A stretch of DNA of 64,000 nucleotides, from contig CM000155.2 of assembly GCA_000004695.1 (NCBI GenBank), positions 3,232,001-3,296,000 on the forward strand, read 5' to 3'. Position 1 is the stretch's first letter, and every line of letters begins with the position of its first letter. Positions 2,983 through 59,705 of the stretch are shown piece by piece. This DNA comes from Dictyostelium discoideum. Its lineage: Eukaryota. The notes under the pieces were generated by a model that was not told the origin of the DNA, made no database searches, and was given only the letters and a program-made list of their open reading frames with translations. Made by a program: the position numbers and the translations under genes.

Positions 2983-3026
2983 TTTGTAGCCAAATTGATG
3001 TAAATTTTTAAAATTTCATCAAAAAT

Positions 3027-3099
3027 GCCTGGATGGCTCAGTAGGCAGAGCGAGCGGCTGTTAACCGCTAGGTCCATGGTTCGATCCCATGTCTAGGCG
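3027..3099 (+). tRNA. tRNA-Asn (anticodon GTT).
   Basis: Cloverleaf: acceptor GCCTGGA/TCTAGGC, D-arm GCTC...GAGC, anticodon stem AGCGG/CCGCT with loop CTGTTAA, T-arm CATGG-TTCGATC-CCATG, discriminator G. Confidence 0.9.
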
Positions 3100-3132
3100 A
3101 TACTTTTCTATGAGAATAGAATTAGATCGCAG

Positions 3133-4525: not shown

Positions 4526-4700
4526 ATATATTCAAACTTTTTAATATTTGTTCAACTGATGAAGATAAACTTCTTTGTTAACTACATCAGTAGAACAAAT
4601 ATTAAAAAGTTTGAATATTATTTAATTTATTTTAAATTAATATTCAAACTTTTTAATATTTGTTCAACTGATGTAGTTAACAAAGAAGATAAAATTAATT
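4526..4700. repeat. Nested palindrome / foldback structure in the TPS-P450 bidirectional promoter. Arm aatattcaaactttttaatatttgttc occurs direct (4528-4553), inverted (4593-4618) and direct again (4640-4667), with a partly palindromic core around gttaac.
   Basis: Read directly. A near-perfect hairpin is possible over 4528-4618. Confidence 0.8.
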
Positions 4701-4909
4701 AATTGAATGTTTTTATTTTGGAAATGGTCTTTTTATCCACGTAATAAACTGTTAATTAAAAAATAACAATCAGATTATAAAAAAAAAAAAATTATATTTT
4801 TAACAGATTTACCCTCAAAATATCAAAGGGGTTTTTTTTTTTTTAATTTTCCAAAAAAAAAAAAAAAAAAAAAAAAAACCAGTTGTGTTTTTTTAGGGCT
4901 TTATAAAAA

Positions 4910-4945
<36 letters not shown>

Positions 4946-4988
4946 TATATTAATTTTTTTTTTTTTGGAATGATATAATTTAAAGAAA

Positions 4989-5480
4989 ATGATTTTATTA
5001 ACACTTTTATATTTAATTATTTTTTATATTATAATAGATTTTATAAAAAAAAATTATAAAACAAAAAATCAATTACCATCACCATTAGGAATTGCATTAC
5101 CAATTATTGGTCATTTACATTTATTACGTACCGATCCATATAAAACATTAGCTAAAGCATCGAAAAAAACAGAACATGGTATTTTAAAATGTTGGAATGG
5201 TGAGCATTTAATGGTTGTAGTTGATAATCCATCAATAATTAAACAAATGTATGTAAATACAAATAATTTTACAGATAGACCACAAACCAAAGTATTTGAA
5301 ATCATTTCAAGAAATTATAAAAATAGTGGTTTTGCAAATGGTGAAAAATGGAAACATCTCAGAGGTTTATATGCACCAAGTTTTACAAAAATTAAATCAA
5401 GACCACATGAAAATATAATTTTAAAATATGTAAATTTTGAAATTAAATCTTTAAAAAATCATGCAATTACAAATTCAATT
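4989..5480 (+). CDS. Cytochrome P450, exon 1 of 2 (164 codons; membrane anchor and Pro-rich hinge LPSPLGIALPIIGHLHLL). Donor caattg|GTAAGT, phase 0.
   Basis: Typical P450 N-terminus. GTAAGT sits directly after codon 164. The ORF otherwise runs into C10/T-rich junk. Confidence 0.85.
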
Positions 5481-5587
5481 GTAAGTTTGACCCCCCCCCC
5501 CCTTTTTTTTATTTATTTTTAAATTTTAATTAATAAATCATTATTAACTTTTTCTTTTTTATTTTCTATTAATAATAAAATAAATAG

Positions 5588-6571
5588 TATAATCCATTTT
5601 TAATTGAAAATATTAATTCATTTGGTACAAAAGTTATTACAGAAATTATATTTGGTAGAGAGTTTAGTGAAAATGAAGTTTACTCATTAATTGGACCAAT
5701 GAATAAATTATTTGGTATATTGGATACACCATTTCCATCAGAGAGTATATCATTTTTAAAACCATTTTATAGAAGATCTTATAAAGAATGTGATAAACAA
5801 TGTGAAGAATTATTTAAATTGGTTGAAAAAGTTTATGATGATCATTTATTGAATCTAGACAAAGACAACCCAAAAGATGTAATGGATGTAATGATTGTTG
5901 AAACTGATTTCAAAGAAAAGGATCATGTAATTTGTATATGTTGTGATTTATTAATGGGTACAAAAGATACATTCAATACAATTGTTTTATGGTTTTTTGT
6001 ATTAATGATAAATTATCAAGATGTGCAATTGAAGGGATATCAAGAGATAATCAAGGTTTTGGAATGCACAGGTCGAGATCATGTAACAATTGAAGATATC
6101 GATAAATTACCATACATTGATGGAATTATTAAAGAAATCTCAAGAATTCATCCAGCAGGTCCTTTATCAGTACCAAGAACTGCAATCAATGATATAATGA
6201 TCAATGGTTATTTCATTCCAAAAGGTTGTCATGTTTTTCAAAATACTTATGGTGCAGTTTATAATTATATGAAAGAATCTGATGAACCTTGTAAAATGAA
6301 ACCAGAAAGATGGATTGAAAATGAAAAATTAAGAAAAGATGGTAAATTAGACCCAACTAATGATTTAGCATTGATTTCATTACCTTTTTCAAGCGGAATT
6401 AGAAATTGTCCTGGTGTTGGTTTTGCAGAGTATGAATTATTCTTATTATTTTCAAATATCATTTTAAATTTTCATTTATCAAGTCCAAATAATCTAAAAC
6501 TCAATGAAAGTGGTCATTTTGGTCTTACAATGAAACCATTTCCATTTTTAGTTGATTTAAAATTAAGATAA
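5588..6571 (+). CDS. Cytochrome P450, exon 2 of 2 (327 codons; EXXR = EISR, PERW, heme loop FSSGIRNCPG). The total protein is about 491 aa.
   Basis: Acceptor aaatAG at 5586-5587, then the frame is open from 5588 (YNPFLIENINSFG...). Canonical FxxGxRxCxG cysteine ligand motif. TAA stop at 6569-6571. Confidence 0.85.
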   Translation, partial: YNPFLIENINSFGTKVITEIIFGREFSENEVYSLIGPMNKLFGILDTPFPSESISFLKPFYRRSYKECDKQCEELFKLVEKVYDDHLLNLDKDNPKDVMDVMIVETDFKEKDHVICICCDLLMGTKDTFNTIVLWFFVLMINYQDVQLKGYQEIIKVLECTGRDHVTIEDIDKLPYIDGIIKEISRIHPAGPLSVPRTAINDIMINGYFIPKGCHVFQNTYGAVYNYMKESDEPCKMKPERWIENEKLRKDGKLDPTNDLALISLPFSSGIRNCPGVGFAEYELFLLFSNIILNFHLSSPNNLKLNESGHFGLTMKPFPFLVDLKLR

Positions 6572-6573
6572 TA

Positions 6574-6574
<1 letters not shown>

Positions 6575-6631
<57 letters not shown>

Positions 6632-6700
6632 TTTATTTTTATTTTTATTTTTATTTTTATTTTTATTTTTATTTTTATTTTTATTATTATTATCTTCTTT
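6575..6700. repeat. (ATT)n then (ATTTTT)n microsatellite.
   Basis: Read directly. Confidence 0.9.
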
Positions 6701-6980
6701 TTTAGTAAATATTTTTTATACAACATATTAATAAAATTAAAAATCATTTATTTTTCTTTATTTTTTTTTTTTTTTTTTTTTTATTTTTTTTTATTTGTAT
6801 ATAATATTTTAAAATCGATTTTTTGTAATTTGACATAAAAAAAAAAAAAAAAAATAAAAAAATAATAAAATTAAAAACAAAAATAAAAATAAAAACTCAC
6901 TTTCTTTTTTTTTTTATTTTAGAAATTATTATTATTTGTTTCTTTTTTAAATATAAAAAATTAAAAAAAAATTTTTAATA

Positions 6981-7230
6981 ATGTCACAAAATGAATATGA
7001 CAAAAGTAATTCACTTTTAAATATATTTTCAATAAAAAAAATAACGTTAGAGAATGAAACTCTACTAAATTCAAAGATACCATGGGAAATAATTAAGAAT
7101 GGTAATGTTATTGATTTAGGTTGTGGTAATGGATGGTTTTGTAGAGAAATGATTGAAAAAGGTGTAAACCAAATTATTGGTGTTGACATTTCTGAAAAAT
7201 TAATTAAAAAAGCAATAGAATTAAATAAAG

Positions 7231-7279
<49 letters not shown>

Positions 7280-7460
7280 AAAATTAAAATATTATGTCAC
7301 TGATTTAGATAATTTCCAACTTAATGAAACTCCTTTTAATTCATTAATTGGTTCATTTGATTTTGCATTTAGTTCATTTGTAACTCATTATCTATCAGAT
7401 TTAGAATCATATTTTAAAAAAGTTTACAATTTATTAAAATCAAATAATAATAATAATAAT

Positions 7461-7530
<70 letters not shown>

Positions 7531-7889
7531 GAGGTAGTAGTTTTATATTTTTAGCAGAACATCCAATGAGAACTTCAACAAAATGTATTGAAAATAAATT
7601 TATAAATCATAAATTTGAAGGTGATGAAAATTCAAAAATGGTTTGGCCAATTTCAGATTATAGTGAAGAAGGTAAAAGAGTAACTAATTGGGCTGGATCA
7701 AGTGGAATTATTAAATATCATTATACAATTGAAACTTATGTAAACACTTTAATTAAAGTAGGTTTTAAAATTGATTATCTAGGTGAATTAAATCTTGTAG
7801 AAAGACAATTACAATTTAGTAATTCTGGTGATATATCTATAGAAGCAAATAGACCATTTACACTATTTATTAAAGTGTCAAAAAATTAA
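6981..7889 (+). CDS. Class I SAM-dependent methyltransferase, paralog 1 (302 aa). Contains N14 and ~N40 Asn-tract insertions.
   Basis: Motif I VIDLGCGNGWF (GxGxG), post-I acidic IGVDIS, motif II FDFAFSS. 85-90% identical to the ORF at 9196-9987 outside the Asn tracts. Confidence 0.8.
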
Positions 7890-8642
7890 TAAAAAAAAAA
7901 AAAAAATAAAAAAAAAAAGTTAAAAAAGTAAATAATTTAAATTTAATAATAAATAATTAATAAAAAATAAAAATAAATGTAAATTTCATTTCATTATCAC
8001 AAAAATAAAATATATACGTTATTTTATTAATTTAAAAATTATTGTACATGTTGTGCCAAGAACTTTTATTAGAAAAATAAGATGAAATAAAATAAAATGA
8101 TCTTTATTTTATAATTTTCTTTTTAAATTTTTATTATTATTAAAATTATGAATTTTAATAATAAAATATTCAATCGACATTAATAAGTCCACGTGGTTTT
8201 TACCCACGTGGGGTGAGAAAAGTTTAATTATATAAATTTTGATAATACAAGATTTTATTGCAATAATCCAATTATAGTATTTTGATAATAAATAATTAAA
8301 TTGCATTATTCGACTAATTAATTAAATTATTTTCAATTTTATTTTTTATTTAATTTTAAATACAACATATTTAAAACTGGTTATCTTTAAAAAAAAAATA
8401 AAAAAATATTAATAGTTTTATAGTGTTTTTAAAAAAAAAAAAAAAAAATTTGGACGGATAATTGTGAAAAATTTGGACGGATAATGGTGAAAAAATAAGG
8501 ATAATCAAAAAAAACCCTTTTAATACAAAGATGGAAAAAGGGAAAACATATTTTTTAAAACTATGGAATTATCATAATGTTATTATTTCATGGATAAGGA
8601 TAATCAAAAAAAACCCTTTTAATTCAAAGATGGAAAAAGGGA

Positions 8643-9987: not shown

Positions 9988-10620
9988 TTAAAGAAAGCTT
10001 TAATTTTTTTAAAAAAGTAAATCATTTTTATATTAAAAAAAAAAAATAAAAAAAATAAAAAAAAAAAAATAAAAAAAATAAAAAAAAAAGATTTTTTAAT
10101 CTTTTTTTTTTTTTCACCTATCCTTTTTGACAAATTAACACAGCAATTTCAAAAGTTATGTTTAAAAATTAATTATTTATTTTTTTTTCCCCACCATTTT
10201 AGCTTTTTTTTGATACACACAGAATAATAAAGAAATATTAATAAAAATAAAGAAATAATAATAAAATTCTTTTTTTTTTTTTTTAAAAAATTATTATTTT
10301 ATTAATTACCAATCACGTAGTTTAGTGTGCTCGAAATTGATAAAATTATTATGTTAACAGACACGAAATATGTTCGTTTTACAATTTAAAAAAATAATGC
10401 AGTTTCTGTTTCTCGTTAAAATAATTGTGACCTAAACAAAAATTAAAAAAAAAAAAAATAAAAAAACAATTAAATAAAAAATAAAAATAAAAAATAAAAT
10501 AAAACTGGGATTCAAAAATAAAAGCAAGCTCTAATCTATTATAATTTTTAATTAAATATGTGTTAATCTAATTCTTCAATACACCTCTAAACTTTTCACT
10601 TATATAAAAAAAAAAAAAAA

Positions 10621-10905
10621 ATGACATTAATTGGTATACCACGTGGTACACCTCAAATTGAAGTTATGTTTGATGTTGATAGTAATGGTATTTTAAATGT
10701 TGCAGCTGAAGATAAAACTTCTAAAAAAGTTGAAAAAATAACTATCACCAATGACAAAGGTCGTCCCTCTCTAAAAGATATTAATAAAATGGTTGAAGAT
10801 GCAGAGAAATTTAAAGAACAAGATCAACAACAAATTTTGAAAGTTTATTTTACAAATTATTGCATAAATAAAAAAAAAAAAAAAGATTTACAAAATTTTA
10901 TTTAA
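10621..10905 (+). pseudogene. Internally deleted Hsp70 pseudogene. The first 18 nt of the hsp70 CDS (ATGACAtcAATTGGTATA) are fused to the substrate-binding-domain segment PRGTPQIEV...[10 protein letters not shown], then the sequence diverges.
   Basis: ~90% nucleotide identity of 10639-10845 to 12643-12850 of the adjacent hsp70. The start is identical to 11242-11259. Confidence 0.75.
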
Positions 10906-11241
10906 AATAATAAAATGAGAAAATAATATAATTTTAAAAAACCAATAGTATTTAATGTATTTTTTTAATTAAAATTATAGAAATCCTATCCCTTGTTTAA
11001 ACAAATCTAATCGAAAAATCTGGTGAATTTCAACTGTTTCCCAAAAATGTGAAATTTCAGAAAATTAAATTTAAAAAAAAAAGCAAAAAAAAAAAAACTA
11101 TTTATATTCGCTGTTTTATTTTTAATTTCTATTATTAATTATTTCTTTTTTTTTATATTTATATATATTAATTATTTTCTTATTACTTTTTTCGTTATTA
11201 AATTTAAATTTTTAATAGATTATTAAAAAAAAAAAAAAAAA

Positions 11242-13134
11242 ATGACATCAATTGGTATAGATTTAGGAACAACATATTCTTGTGTTGGTGTTTGGTTGAA
11301 TGATCGTGTTGAAATTATTGCAAATGATCAAGGTAATAGAACTACTCCATCATATGTTGCATTCAATGATACAGAGCGTTTAATTGGTGATGCTGCAAAG
11401 AATCAAGTTGCAATGAATCCAATAAATACAGTTTTCGATGCAAAACGTTTAATTGGTAGGAAATTTTCAGATAGTGTTGTTCAAAGTGATATGAAACATT
11501 GGCCATTTAAAGTTATAACAAATAAAAACGATGATAAACCATTAATTCAAGTTGATTTCAAAGGTGAAACTAAAACATTCTCACCTGAAGAAATTTCATC
11601 AATGGTATTATCAAAAATGAAAGAAACTGCTGAATCATATTTAGGTAAACCTGTTAACAATGCAGTTATAACAGTTCCAGCTTATTTCAATGATGGACAA
11701 CGTCAAGCAACTAAGGATGCTGGTACAATTTCAAAATTAAATGTTCAACGTATCATTAATGAACCAAGTGCTGCTGCTATTGCATATGGTTTAGATAAGA
11801 AAGGTAGTAAAAGTGGTGAAATAAAAGTTTTAATATTCGATTTGGGTGGTGGTACATTTGATGTTTCATTACTATCAATTGATGATGGTGTATTTGAAGT
11901 TTTAGCAACAGCTGGTGATACTCATTTAGGTGGTGAAGATTTTGATAATCGTTTAGTGAATCACTTTGTAGATGAATTCAAACGTAAACATAAGAAGGAT
12001 ATAATGGGTAACCAACGTGCTCTTCGTCGTTTGAGAACTGCATGTGAACGTGCAAAAAGAACACTATCATCATCATCTCAAGCATCAGTTGAAATTGATT
12101 CACTTTATGATGGTATTGATTTCTATACCTCAATTACCAGAGCACGTTTTGAAGAACTTTGTTCTGACCTTTTCAATAATTGTATTGAACCAGTTGAAAA
12201 AGTTTTAAAAGATTGTAAATTGGATAAGAAATCAATAGATGAAATTGTATTAGTTGGTGGTTCAACTCGTATTCCAAAAGTTCAACAATTAATTCAAAAT
12301 CTTTTCAATGGTAAAGAATTAAATAAATCAATTAATCCTGACGAAGCCGTTGCATATGGTGCAGCAGTACAAGCTGCTATTCTATCAGGTGATAAAAGCT
12401 CAAGAATCTCTGAATTAATTTTCATTGATGTTGCACCATTATCATTGGGTATTGAAACTGTTGGTGGTGTAATGACAAACATCGTTCCAAGAAACACAAT
12501 TATCCCATGTAAAAAGACACAAACTTTTTCAACTCACACAGATAATCAAAGTGGTGTTTTAATTCAAGTTTATGAGGGTGAACGTACAATGACAAAAGAT
12601 AATAATCTATTGGGTAAATTTGAATTAACTGGTATCCCACCAGCACCACGTGGTACACCTCAAATTGAAGTTAGTTTCGATGTTGATAGTAATGGTATTT
12701 TAAATGTTACAGCTGAAGATAAAACTACTAAAAAAGTTGAAAAAATAACTATCACCAATGACAAAGGTCGTCTCTCTCTAAAAGATATTACTAAAATGGT
12801 TGAAGATGCAGAGAAATTTAAAGAACAAGATCAACAACAAAAAGAACGTATTGAATCAAAGAATAATCTTGAAAACTATATATTTTCTGTAAAAAATTCA
12901 ATTAATGACCAGAAAATCATTTCAAAACTCTCTAAATCTGATAAAAATATTATTGAATCTGAAACTGAAAGTACTCTTAAATGGTTAGAATCAAATCAAT
13001 CTGCCGAAAAGGATGAATTTAATCAAAAGATATCAGATCTTGAATCAATTGTTAACCCAATCCTTAGTAAATTCTATCAAGGTAATAATAATCCAAAACC
13101 AACCACAACTACTTTTAACCAAGATCTTGATTAA
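11242..13134 (+). CDS. Hsp70 family chaperone (630 aa, single exon). The C-terminus is ...FNQDLD rather than EEVD.
   Basis: [36 protein letters not shown] and SBD motifs across the full length. Confidence 0.95.
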
Positions 13135-56726: not shown

Positions 56727-57578
56727 TTTTTTTTTTTTGTTTTTTTGTTTATTTATTATTTATTATTATTAATATTAACAATCTATAATTGAAATGAAAA
56801 AATTGAAAAAAATAAATAAAACAATTTATAGTTTTTTTTTAAAAAATTATAAAAATTAAAATTTATTTTAAAATAAATTTATAAAAAATGGAGGTAATGA
56901 TTTTAATTATTTATAAATCTGATAAAAAAAGAGGGTTTAAATATTCTAATTATAAATATTTTAAAAAAATTTTAAATCTGGGGTTAAAAAATAAAAATAG
57001 AATAAAAAAATTAATGTTTTACCTTTTTCTAATTTCAGAAAAAAAGTGTTTTTTTTTGTATATCCACCTCCATCCTAATTTTTTTCACAAATCCAATATA
57101 TCCATTTTTTAAAATAAATTATTATTATTATTATTTTTTTTTTTAATAACATTGTCATTAAAGATAAATAAAAAACTATAACCAAACAGAAAAATAATAA
57201 AAATAATAATATTAATAACCCCTCAAACAAAAAAAACAAAATATATATTTTTTAAATAATTTTTTCATTTTACCATTTTATTTATTTTTTAATATTAATT
57301 TTTTTTTTTTTACCATCTATAATTATTTTTAAAAGATCAACAATCACTTTAATGTTTGGTATCAAAAGTTTATTTATAAATATTCAAATAATGATAAAGA
57401 AATAAAAAGGAAAGTTTTTTTTTTTTTTTTTGTATATATTAAAAAAATGAATTTATTTTTAAATAAATTAGATTAATGAACAATTTTGAGTTTTATTATT
57501 TAAAATAAAACAAAATAGTTATTATGATAATAATTTGTAGAGATTGTTTATTGAGGGTGTGGAATGATTTTTACAATT

Positions 57579-58259
57579 TTAGAAAGATAAGGAATTGAAC
57601 AATGGTTTTGTACCACCACCTGGAATGATTACGTGACCATACATTGAATGTAATTCAATGTCATTAGCAATGGCTAAGAAAATATCTCTTGGTTGAATTA
57701 AAGTTCTCTTGGCTGATACTGCCCCATTACTAGATAACTCTAATATTTCAGAAAGCAAATATTCAATAACAGCTGATAAATAATGCATTGAAGAATTTGA
57801 AATTCTGTAATTATAATTCATTTGTTTTACCTTTGTTTTTAAATAAGAATGTGGGATTATTGGTGGGTGGGAAATTGGTGGAGCAGGAATTGAAGAAGGG
57901 GATGAAGGAGTGGCGGTTTTTGCTGGTGGTGGTTGTGGTGGATATTGCTTTGCGGAATTAAAATTTGTAACTCTTTTAACACCTTCAGAGACTGCATGTC
58001 TTGAAATTTCACCAACAGTACATAAACGAACGGAAGTTTGAACGTCACGTGCACTTAAGGTTCTTTTATTTGAAAGTTGTACTAAATGAAATGCTTCATT
58101 CATAATACTAATTGTTGTATCTCTAATTAAACTAGTTAAAATTTGAACACTCTTAACTTGAATTCTACATGCTGGATTAATTTGTTTAATTAACTTTTTG
58201 ATGTAAATTCCTTCTCTTACATGTGTATGCTGTGTTGATCGTCTTCCTCTATGTCTCAT
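57579..58259 (-). CDS. Histone doublet: N-terminal H2B-like histone fold, Pro-rich linker, C-terminal H2A-like histone fold (226 aa).
   Basis: Residues 15-105 align to the H2B core (IYIKKLIKQINP..., ...RTLSARDVQTSVRL..., GEISRHAVSEGVKRVTNF...SAK). Residues 150-226 align to H2A (NYNYRISNSSMHYLSAVIEYLLSEILELSSNGA...RTLIQPRDIFLAIANDIEL...VIIPGGG). Confidence 0.8.
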   Translation of the reverse strand: MRHRGRRSTQHTHVREGIYIKKLIKQINPACRIQVKSVQILTSLIRDTTISIMNEAFHLVQLSNKRTLSARDVQTSVRLCTVGEISRHAVSEGVKRVTNFNSAKQYPPQPPPAKTATPSSPSSIPAPPISHPPIIPHSYLKTKVKQMNYNYRISNSSMHYLSAVIEYLLSEILELSSNGAVSAKRTLIQPRDIFLAIANDIELHSMYGHVIIPGGGTKPLFNSLSF

Positions 58260-59079
58260 CTCTCTTTTTTTTTTTTAATTTGAAAAAATAAAATAAATGT
58301 ATTAAAAAAAAAAAAAAAAAATTAATTTTTAGAAAAAAAAAAGAAAATTATTTTTTTTAAAAAAAAAAAAAAATAAATAAAAAAAATAAAAAAAAATAAA
58401 ACAAATTTAATTTATAGGAAATATGAAAATATCTGTAAAAATTTGAATGAATGAAAAAAAAAATATCTTTTCAAAAACAAATTTTAAAAAAAATTCGAAA
58501 ACACATCATCGCCAATATTAGGAAATTTTTATCCAAATTTTTGAGTTATTTAAAGATATTTTTTTGATAATATTTAATAATATACATATATATTTTTTCT
58601 TTTAGTTTTTGTTTTTTATAATATTAAAAAAAAAAAAAAAAAAAAAAGCTTAATTATTTTATTTAATTTTAAAAACTATCATATTTAAAACTCAATATAA
58701 TAATACAACATTTTAAAATTCATTAACAGATAATTATCTCAAAAATAATAATTGAATTACATTTTAAAATTAAATTTCCCCAATAAAAAAAAAAAAAAAA
58801 AAAAAAAAAGAAAAAATTTAAAATTTTAATTAATTTTTTAATGAATGATTATTTTTTTTTTTTTAAATTTTATAGTTTTTATTGTTATCTAAAATAACTC
58901 ACTATCATTCTCAAGTATTCTTGACCTATTAATAAATTTAATTTTAAAAAAAAAAAGAAAAATTGTAAAACACCAGAACAAAAAGTTTTTTAAAAAAATT
59001 TTATGGGATGGGGAATTGGTATAAAACAAAAACCAACCTTTCTTTTTTTAAATAAGTAAAATAAATAAAATAAAATAAA

Positions 59080-59605: not shown

Positions 59606-59633
59606 TCGACTAATATCAGTTAGTTTGAAAAAG

Positions 59634-59705
59634 CTCCCCATTCGGGAATCGAACCCGAGGTACCAGTGTGAAAGACTAGAGTGTTACCGACTACACCAAT
59701 GAGGA
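59634..59705 (-). tRNA. tRNA-Glu (anticodon TTC).
   Basis: Minus-strand cloverleaf: acceptor TCCTCAT/ATGGGGA, D-arm GTGT...ACAC, anticodon stem CTAGT/ACTGG with loop CTTTCAC, T-arm TCGGG-TTCGATT-CCCGA. Confidence 0.85.

Follow-up and report, generated by a model that had tools for sequence, protein, structure and literature searches.

The nuclear gene H2Bv1 of Dictyostelium discoideum encodes a natural single-chain histone doublet in which an H2B fold is followed by an H2A fold. The gene lies on the minus strand at positions 57579-58259 of a 64,000-nucleotide stretch of DNA (contig CM000155.2, positions 3,232,001 to 3,296,000; hereafter the window). It forms a complete single-exon coding sequence of 226 codons that begins with ATG, and the interval includes the stop codon (57579-57581). 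The product was identified by exact-sequence look-up as the D. discoideum AX4 protein XP_628972.1 (EAL60556.1, UniProt Q54BC2), which appears in the databases as "Histone H2B.v1" or "histone H2B domain-containing protein". The original prediction of a single gene with H2B-like and H2A-like folds is correct in its coordinates, domain order and content, as judged from the open reading frame (ORF), Pfam matches and Protein Data Bank (PDB) matches, and the peptide stretches quoted in it agree with the translation. H2Bv1 is an old gene that has been vertically inherited in the dictyostelid social amoebae. From the sequence we infer, with a probability of roughly 0.6, that its product serves as a minor single-chain variant of the H2A-H2B dimer and enters nucleosomes.

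The window matches a D. discoideum NCBI assembly with >99.6% identity on a 3.6-Mb contig. An identical H2Bv1 protein is encoded in the independent NCBI assembly GCA_054883475.1, where it is called as one gene, and in three Logan contigs. These contigs are collinear with the genome over window positions 57120-58330 and terminate in low-complexity sequence rich in A/T. Since they may just as well have been assembled from DNA, they were excluded as evidence for the expression of H2Bv1. The G+C content of the whole window is about 20%. In tblastn searches of the window, human H2B aligns at 57948-58274 with 38% identity and human H2A aligns at 57603-57830 with 46% identity. No further histone gene, including H3 and H4, was found in the 64-kb window using human histones as the tblastn queries.

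Each half of the product scores as a histone. Pfam PF00125 (core histone) matches H2Bv1 in two separate stretches with an E-value of 2.4e-19. The best PDB matches obtained with phmmer are engineered "Histone H2B,Histone H2A" chimeras, which align in one stretch over residues 18-219 with an E-value of 1e-34; the domain order is therefore H2B then H2A. Ordinary H2B chains in the PDB align to residues 8-105 only (E-value of about 1e-17). The AlphaFold2 model of H2Bv1 has a mean predicted local distance difference test score (pLDDT) of 81.5 and a predicted template-modelling score of 0.76, with pLDDT values above 90 in both folds. Helices α1, α2, α3, and αC of the H2B fold span residues 10-27, 35-62, 70-80, and 83-105, and those of the H2A fold span residues 137-147, 155-182, 190-199, and 201-211, respectively. 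The basic N-terminus (residues 1-12) is disordered in the model, and the region from about 106 to 135 and the C-terminus are of low confidence. Comparison of the model with crystal structures of single-chain H2B-H2A chimeras using Foldseek provided template-modelling (TM) scores of 0.85-0.94, normalised by the target. The order H2B then H2A, which had been likened to that of the Marseilleviridae doublets, is supported by Pfam, the PDB alignment and Foldseek alike.

The polypeptide is divided into five segments. Residues 1-14 (58218-58259, minus strand, as are all of the segments) form the N-terminal segment MRHRGRRSTQHTHV, which is short and basic and replaces the long Lys-rich tail of H2B. 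This segment was delimited by alignment to human H2B and by pLDDT values below 50 at residues 1-12, and it contains no lysine. Residues 15-104 (57948-58217) form the H2B fold, consisting of α1-α3 and the H2B-specific αC with the HAVSEG motif, as assigned from Pfam, the PDB matches, AlphaFold2 and tblastn. The H2B αC signature RHAVSEGVKRVTNF is present. Residues 105-133 (57861-57947) form a disordered linker of 29 residues that is rich in Pro, Ser and Thr, with pLDDT values below 50 at 115-117 and 122-130 and a near-neutral substitution pattern. Residues 134-216 (57612-57860) form the H2A fold, with α1-α3, αC, the acidic patch and the proximal docking strand VIIPGGG, as assigned from the PDB alignment, AlphaFold2, the residue comparison described below and tblastn. 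Residues 217-226 (57582-57611), TKPLFNSLSF, form a short divergent distal docking segment with an aromatic end and without an H2A C-terminal tail, as delimited by alignment and by pLDDT values below 50 at 215-218 and 220-226.

A cryptic intron in the linker was considered and ruled out. The G+C content of the linker DNA is 0.52, compared with 0.11-0.13 in the flanks of the gene, so the linker is not intron-like. The junction was also modelled for the orthologue from Polysphondylium violaceum, whose linker is 2 residues long by domain boundaries. The AlphaFold2 model of this orthologue is confident through the junction, with 11 residues between αC and H2A α1, and fits the crystal structures of single-chain H2B-H2A with deviations of 1.2-2.2 Å across about 175 columns. 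The junction of P. violaceum is short and yet confidently modelled, and the long linker of D. discoideum is therefore a dispensable tether.

Within Dictyostelium, doublet homologues were found in further strains of D. discoideum (93% identity) and in D. cf. discoideum, D. citrinum, D. dimigraforme and D. firmibasis; outside this genus, P. violaceum has two paralogues and Heterostelium album has three tandem copies. Linker length among the dictyostelid orthologues, measured by the same domain boundaries, ranges from 2 to 33 residues. The gene order CBM49 protein, doublet, 138-aa gene, Ras-like GTPase, RCC1-BTB, 178-aa gene and RPN1 is shared by D. discoideum, D. citrinum and D. dimigraforme. 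The neighbours of H2Bv1 are housekeeping genes, including RPN1, uS5, RCC1-BTB and Ras-like genes, and no viral gene is present among the neighbouring genes examined. The G+C content at third codon positions (GC3) of H2Bv1 is 0.167, which falls within the range of the neighbouring genes. The AX4 gene is intronless. The D. firmibasis doublet contains an 84-nt GT..AG intron after MNYNY in the H2A half, and both P. violaceum paralogues contain a 69-nt phase-0 intron before (L/Q)ITPR, also in the H2A half. Each of the three H. album copies is interrupted at the P. violaceum phase-0 position (after KKY or AKK). Of 100 neighbour-joining bootstraps, 86 recover the dictyostelid doublets as a monophyletic group. 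Taken together, the orthologues, the synteny, the shared intron and the host-like GC3 show that the fusion predates the split between the Heterostelium and Dictyostelium lineages. A recent viral insertion is excluded by the introns in the orthologues, the conserved synteny and the host-like GC3.

Three further observations were made on these genomes. The three tandem copies of H. album lie at 4669-8593 of the locus examined (GL290983.1) with a DDE-transposase gene just upstream, and the public gene models are wrong: PPL_00136 (457 aa) fuses two copies, and a model of 269 aa runs through the intron into noncoding sequence. The D. firmibasis doublet is flanked by an importin-β-like gene and by enoyl-CoA hydratase/FANCI genes, unlike the conserved Dictyostelium neighbourhood, and its intron position differs; either the gene has moved or this copy is a paralogue. 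In the second assembly labelled D. discoideum, GCA_054859385.1, 7% of the residues differ from AX4 in H2Bv1 and 6-15% differ in three neighbours, with RPN1 identical. For an assembly under the same species name, the lineage seems rather divergent.

The dictyostelid sequences were aligned to the human histones, and the roles of the individual positions were taken from established nucleosome structures. Five of the six H2A acidic-patch residues (E56, E61, E64, D90, and E92) are the same in all of the dictyostelid copies. The sixth position, E91, is variable among the copies and is isoleucine in AX4. The minor-groove residue R42 of H2A is invariant in all of the copies, and K74 and K/R75 are retained. 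In the H2B half, E105 is kept in the Dictyostelium species except for a conservative aspartate in D. firmibasis, and E113 is kept in most Dictyostelium copies. E76, L80, R92, R99, and L100 of H2B are retained in the Dictyostelium species. Nine of the ten sampled positions of the H2B-H4 four-helix bundle are kept in the Dictyostelium species, and the KRT segment of H2B L2 is retained. In the docking domain, H2A R81, G98, the V/A-I-I β-strand and the GG motif are conserved. The docking residues 107-116 vary among the orthologues and are modelled with low confidence, and the divergent docking domain of the original prediction is thus borne out for the part beyond the GG motif.

The tails are largely absent. 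The loss of the long H2B N-terminal tail and of the H2A C-terminal tail, both of which had been predicted, is real in the alignment to human H2B and H2A. The position of H2B K120 is asparagine in D. discoideum. The H2A N-terminal tail is absent, and the region of the H2A signature [AC]-G-L-x-F-P-V reads HPPIIPH, with only the proline kept and no αN helix. The H2A part stops at the equivalent of human H2A residue ~116, and K118/K119 are therefore missing. The protein is basic, with a net charge of +16 and an isoelectric point of 10.2, compared with a net charge of +35 for human H2A plus H2B. Identification of the H2A half as H2A.X was rejected; the AX4 C-terminus, ...FNSLSF, is without SQ[E/D]Φ, and only the terminal aromatic residue resembles this motif. 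Identification as H2A.Z was also rejected, with the H2A core 42% identical to human H2A and 34% identical to H2A.Z.

The ratio of nonsynonymous to synonymous substitution rates (dN/dS), estimated by the method of Nei and Gojobori (NG86), is 0.4-0.55 for either fold and near or above 0.8 for the linker, the latter being near neutral; NG86 gives approximate values in a genome so rich in AT. All of the species and strains examined have an uninterrupted doublet reading frame, and 24 columns are invariant across eleven dictyostelid sequences. The doublet is 69% identical to that of D. citrinum and 62% identical to that of D. dimigraforme. The corresponding identities to these two species are 99% for RPN1, 80-86% for the Ras-like gene and 73-76% for the RCC1-BTB gene. 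H2Bv1 has the lowest identity in both comparisons and is thus the fastest-evolving gene of its neighbourhood. By these estimates, H2Bv1 is under purifying selection that is very relaxed for a histone. Its rapid evolution recalls the specialised histone variants of other organisms.

A mechanism for the proposed role may be formulated as follows. The two halves of H2Bv1 would pair by the usual histone handshake to give a covalently closed H2A-H2B dimer, with the flexible linker acting only as a tether. This single-chain topology is compatible with the native dimer fold, since engineered fusions with the same topology have been crystallised as H2A-H2B dimers in complex with chaperones and further H2A-H2B partner proteins. 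The H2Bv1 dimer would replace the H2AX-H2Bv3 dimer on the (H3-H4)2 tetramer to give a minority class of nucleosome, and docking to the tetramer would occur through the retained residues of the H2B-H4 four-helix bundle and the H2A docking strand. The fusion would force the variant H2A to pair always with its own variant H2B. A nucleosome of this type would keep a near-intact acidic patch, and chromatin factors could still bind to it. It would be barred from every modification of the H2A and H2B tails, including acetylation and ADP-ribosylation of the H2B tail, from ubiquitin at H2B K120 and at H2A K118/K119, and from SQ phosphorylation of the H2A.X type. It would probably be wrapped less tightly because of the smaller number of DNA-contacting arginines.

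Several observations weigh against the incorporation of H2Bv1 into nucleosomes. H2B Y83, a residue of the H4 interface, is replaced by leucine or isoleucine. Positions that bind DNA are lost: the αN helix with R17/R20 is missing, and H2A R29, R32 and R77 are replaced by tyrosine, threonine and leucine, respectively. Conservation is lacking in the distal docking segment, and the net charge of the H2A half is only +2, compared with +7 for the human core. The dN/dS near 0.5 is far above the values for nucleosomal core histones, with the roughness of these estimates in mind. In addition, the acid-extracted histone bands of growing cells are H2AX and H2Bv3, and H2Bv1 is not among them (PMC3424546). 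H2Bv1 is a minor component in growing cells.

Some of the same observations favour an alternative that we consider unlikely, namely that H2Bv1 is a histone-fold protein acting outside the octamer. Such a protein may serve as a decoy for H2A-H2B chaperones, importins or acidic-patch readers, or it may bind DNA or partners of its own, by analogy with SOS or with TAF/NF-Y. The lost DNA-contact arginines, the divergent distal docking segment, the low positive charge of the H2A half, the fast evolution and the absence from the bulk histones are all consistent with this explanation, and the H2Bv1 model also matches the SOS histone domain. A related environmental contig, described below, carries a second doublet with a tail resembling a membrane anchor, and doublets can therefore gain other uses. 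However, H2Bv1 scores 70 bits with the Pfam core histone family and no more than 31 bits with the TAF or NF-Y families, and residues that are needed only in a nucleosome (the H2B-H4 bundle, the H2A docking strand, the GG motif and R42) are conserved across the clade or across Dictyostelium species. It is very improbable that H2Bv1 is a decaying or nonfunctional gene, a relic of a fusion drifting toward a pseudogene. The high dN/dS, the position of H2Bv1 as the fastest-evolving gene of the neighbourhood and its status as a minor species in proteomics would fit such decay, but the reading frame is intact across all of the dictyostelid lineages sampled, the dN/dS of the folds is clearly below 1 while the linker drifts, the 24 invariant columns persist in the eleven sequences, and duplicates are retained in two lineages. 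Misreading of two adjacent genes or two exons as one ORF can be dismissed with near certainty. Many of the "doublets" in the databases are errors of this kind, among them the H2A-H2A and H2A-H2B read-through models of fish and the merged Heterostelium model. The case of two genes split by an intron with a stop or a frameshift was looked for in H2Bv1, and an uninterrupted frame of 678 nt with zero stops or frameshifts was found instead. The linker DNA is GC-rich and coding-like, unlike an AT-rich intron; the H2A half is without its own Met start and N-terminal tail; and the fusion is kept across orthologues whose linkers differ in length.

For the ultimate origin of the doublet, a fusion within the lineage, an older cellular doublet family and an ancient viral transfer are all candidates. 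A profile search of 1.84 billion representative proteins provided 1110 matches at E ≤ 1e-30. Classification was applied to 167 proteins, consisting of the listed matches, the homologues found earlier and four human references, and 139 of these have the simple H2B-then-H2A architecture. One group of doublets is viral-looking, with Lys-rich tails or extra H3/H4 domains; the remaining groups consist of mis-fused metazoan gene models, a eukaryote-like class and one engineered PDB construct. In each half, the dictyostelid sequences show about 40% identity both to the human histone (H2B or H2A) and to most of the doublets. Descent from a giant-virus H2B-H2A doublet, transferred either recently or before the dictyostelid radiation, appears distinctly unlikely. 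It is favoured by the giant-virus metagenome contigs, which encode many doublets of the same order, and by one such relative, which on a compact contig adjoins a further histone gene of doublet size (226 aa). LAIAND and (D)xIIPGG of the Dictyostelium copies also recur in some viral doublets, and in searches with class-specific hidden Markov models the H2A half scores a few bits higher with the viral-doublet class than with the eukaryote-like class. The H2B half, however, scores higher with the eukaryote-like class, and differences of only a few bits do not discriminate between the classes. Heterostelium has the canonical VTIAQGGV, so the IIPGG likeness is probably convergent. The viral relatives that cover both halves are 23-33% identical to H2Bv1 and the Melbournevirus doublet is 25% identical, below the values for human H2B and H2A. 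A horizontal transfer from a virus had been offered as one source of the gene. Its recent form is contradicted by the introns in three lineages, with one position common to Heterostelium and Polysphondylium, by the conserved synteny and host-like GC3 and by the lack of viral genes nearby; its ancient form is retained as a candidate because the sister group of the dictyostelid doublets is unstable in the neighbour-joining bootstraps. We tentatively raise another possibility, namely that H2Bv1 is a fast-evolving remnant of an old and widespread family of cellular H2B-H2A(.X) doublets in Amoebozoa and other protists. If so, living eukaryotes, including the hosts of giant viruses, would keep the "doublet state" that is now assigned only to viruses or stem eukaryotes, and cellular doublets could be the donors of the viral doublets or relics of a shared ancestral state.

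The eukaryote-like doublets form a coherent class with the order H2B then H2A. Their last residues are of the H2A.X type (SQEY, SQEF, SQMF, SQAF) or a degenerate form of it (NQEY, PQEF, TFEY), and an SQx[F/Y] end is present in 12 of the 37 doublets with an aromatic last residue. Many of them also contain repeats (FG/GGF or SAP-like) or a ubiquitin-like domain at the N-terminus. The sequences derive from the transcriptome of the amoebozoan Pyxidicula operculata, from MMETSP transcripts and from environmental contigs of about 1 kb, and at least one eukaryote-like doublet lies in a cellular genomic context. No description of the eukaryote-like doublets ending in SQ was found in the searched literature. 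Those with an SQ[E/D][F/Y] end resemble H2Bv1 in their order, short linkers, short H2B N-terminus and aromatic last residue, and several dictyostelid copies end in F or Y. They differ from H2Bv1 in their near-canonical cores (for example YIYKVLKQVHPD and AGLQFPVGR) and in their extra repeats or domains; H2Bv1 is without these and without the SQ.

An environmental contig of 25 kb encodes a Dictyostelium-type STAT with an SH2 domain, RPL35Ae, DnaJ, RGS and GST, which are cellular genes. It also encodes an H2B-H2A doublet ending in GWQY (10001-10663) that is directly followed by a second, divergent doublet (10740-11465), which has a hydrophobic transmembrane-like C-terminus, LVAFALALLVALVVVIVWF. 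About 100 RefSeq entries of ~261 aa from teleosts, sharks and hagfish, named "Histone H2AX-like" or "uncharacterized", contain two canonical H2A sequences and a short spacer. These were rejected as real doublets, with two identical H2A copies read through, and they look like read-through models in tandem histone clusters.

The viral doublets are essential virion chromatin proteins (PMC8357426). In giant-virus genomes an H4-H3 doublet or other viral histones usually accompany the H2B-H2A doublet. The Marseilleviridae doublets, represented by that of Melbournevirus (PDB 7N8N, chain B), resemble H2Bv1 in being one chain with H2B first, a connector and an intramolecular dimer, and TM scores of 0.77-0.78 were obtained. 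The Melbournevirus sequence is only 23-25% identical, however, and H2Bv1 differs from the viral doublets as a cellular nuclear gene that lies among housekeeping genes, has orthologues with introns and is accompanied by no H4-H3 doublet in the window. The engineered chimeras (PDB 6W4L, 7WLP, 7DLX, and 4NFT) have the same order as H2Bv1 and use the H2A N-terminal region as the connector; the E-value of 1e-34 and TM scores of up to 0.94 refer to such constructs. These chimeras demonstrate that a fusion of this sort adopts the H2A-H2B dimer fold and is recognised by proteins that partner H2A-H2B. They are laboratory constructs of canonical histones, whereas H2Bv1 is natural, about 40% identical per core, tail-less and fast-evolving.

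The SOS N-terminal histone domain (PDB 1Q9C) and Methanopyrus HMk (PDB 1F1E) also contain two intramolecularly paired folds in one chain. They are 18-21% identical to H2Bv1 and do not share its descent from H2B plus H2A, and SOS is a non-chromatin protein. The mammalian variants H2A.B, H2A.L and H2A.P resemble H2Bv1 in that they evolve rapidly, lack the C-terminal tail and some of the DNA contacts, and are of minor abundance. These short H2As stand alone, unfused to H2B, and retain little of the acidic patch; much of their docking domain is missing as well. H2Bv1, in contrast, keeps five of the six H2A acidic-patch residues and the proximal docking strand. The H2AX and H2Bv3 proteins of Dictyostelium belong to the same organism and the same histone families as H2Bv1 and presumably share the H3-H4 partners. 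They are encoded by separate genes, are the major histones of growing cells and have modifiable tails (PMC3424546, PMC5333086); the comparison with H2Bv1 was made from their description.

Two tRNA genes were located in the window. A tRNA-Glu(TTC) gene is found at 59633-59705 on the minus strand, 1.4 kb upstream of H2Bv1, and a tRNA-Asn(GTT) gene is found at 3026-3100 on the plus strand, near the start of the window. On the matching NCBI contig, the sequence just past the end of the window contains a reverse-transcriptase ORF. Dictyostelium retroelements habitually insert near tRNA genes, and the layout of tRNA genes and reverse-transcriptase ORF fits this habit.

Doublets are treated as viral in the searched literature, and histone repeats in eukaryotes are called rare (PMC5704553, PMC9145170, PMC11222145). 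H2Bv1 itself appears as the insert of a cloning vector, as a Northern probe made from its coding sequence (PMC7190356) and as a proteomic detection below threshold (PMC12750705; BMC Genomics paper and bioRxiv preprint), and the fusion is unmentioned. A description of H2Bv1 as a doublet was not found in the searched literature, although the 2011 review of Dictyostelium histone variants (Stevense et al.) may mention the fusion; nor was a Dictyostelium or other cellular H2B-H2A doublet found in the searched literature on viral histones. The expectation that such a doublet would be very unusual in a cellular eukaryote stands in a narrower form, as the gene was already catalogued as H2Bv1, the doublet occurs throughout the dictyostelids and further cellular-looking doublets exist elsewhere. 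The doublet is of a kind known from giant viruses, and H2Bv1 is catalogued under a name that hides this architecture. What appears to be new, within the searched literature, is that a model eukaryote has a doublet and that this doublet is ancient within the dictyostelids, with introns and paralogues.

Histone doublets are central to the debate on the origin of giant-virus histones and on a fused-dimer stage of the eukaryotic nucleosome. A bona fide cellular doublet is present in a highly tractable protist model, where it was overlooked as "H2B.v1". Its presence raises the question of whether a single-chain H2A-H2B dimer is usable in eukaryotic chromatin, how forced pairing and the loss of both tails would affect the nucleosome, and how the cellular and viral doublets are related. 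Even if H2Bv1 is a minor lineage-specific variant that is unlinked to viruses, it would still be a natural counterpart of the engineered chimeras used in nucleosome structural biology.

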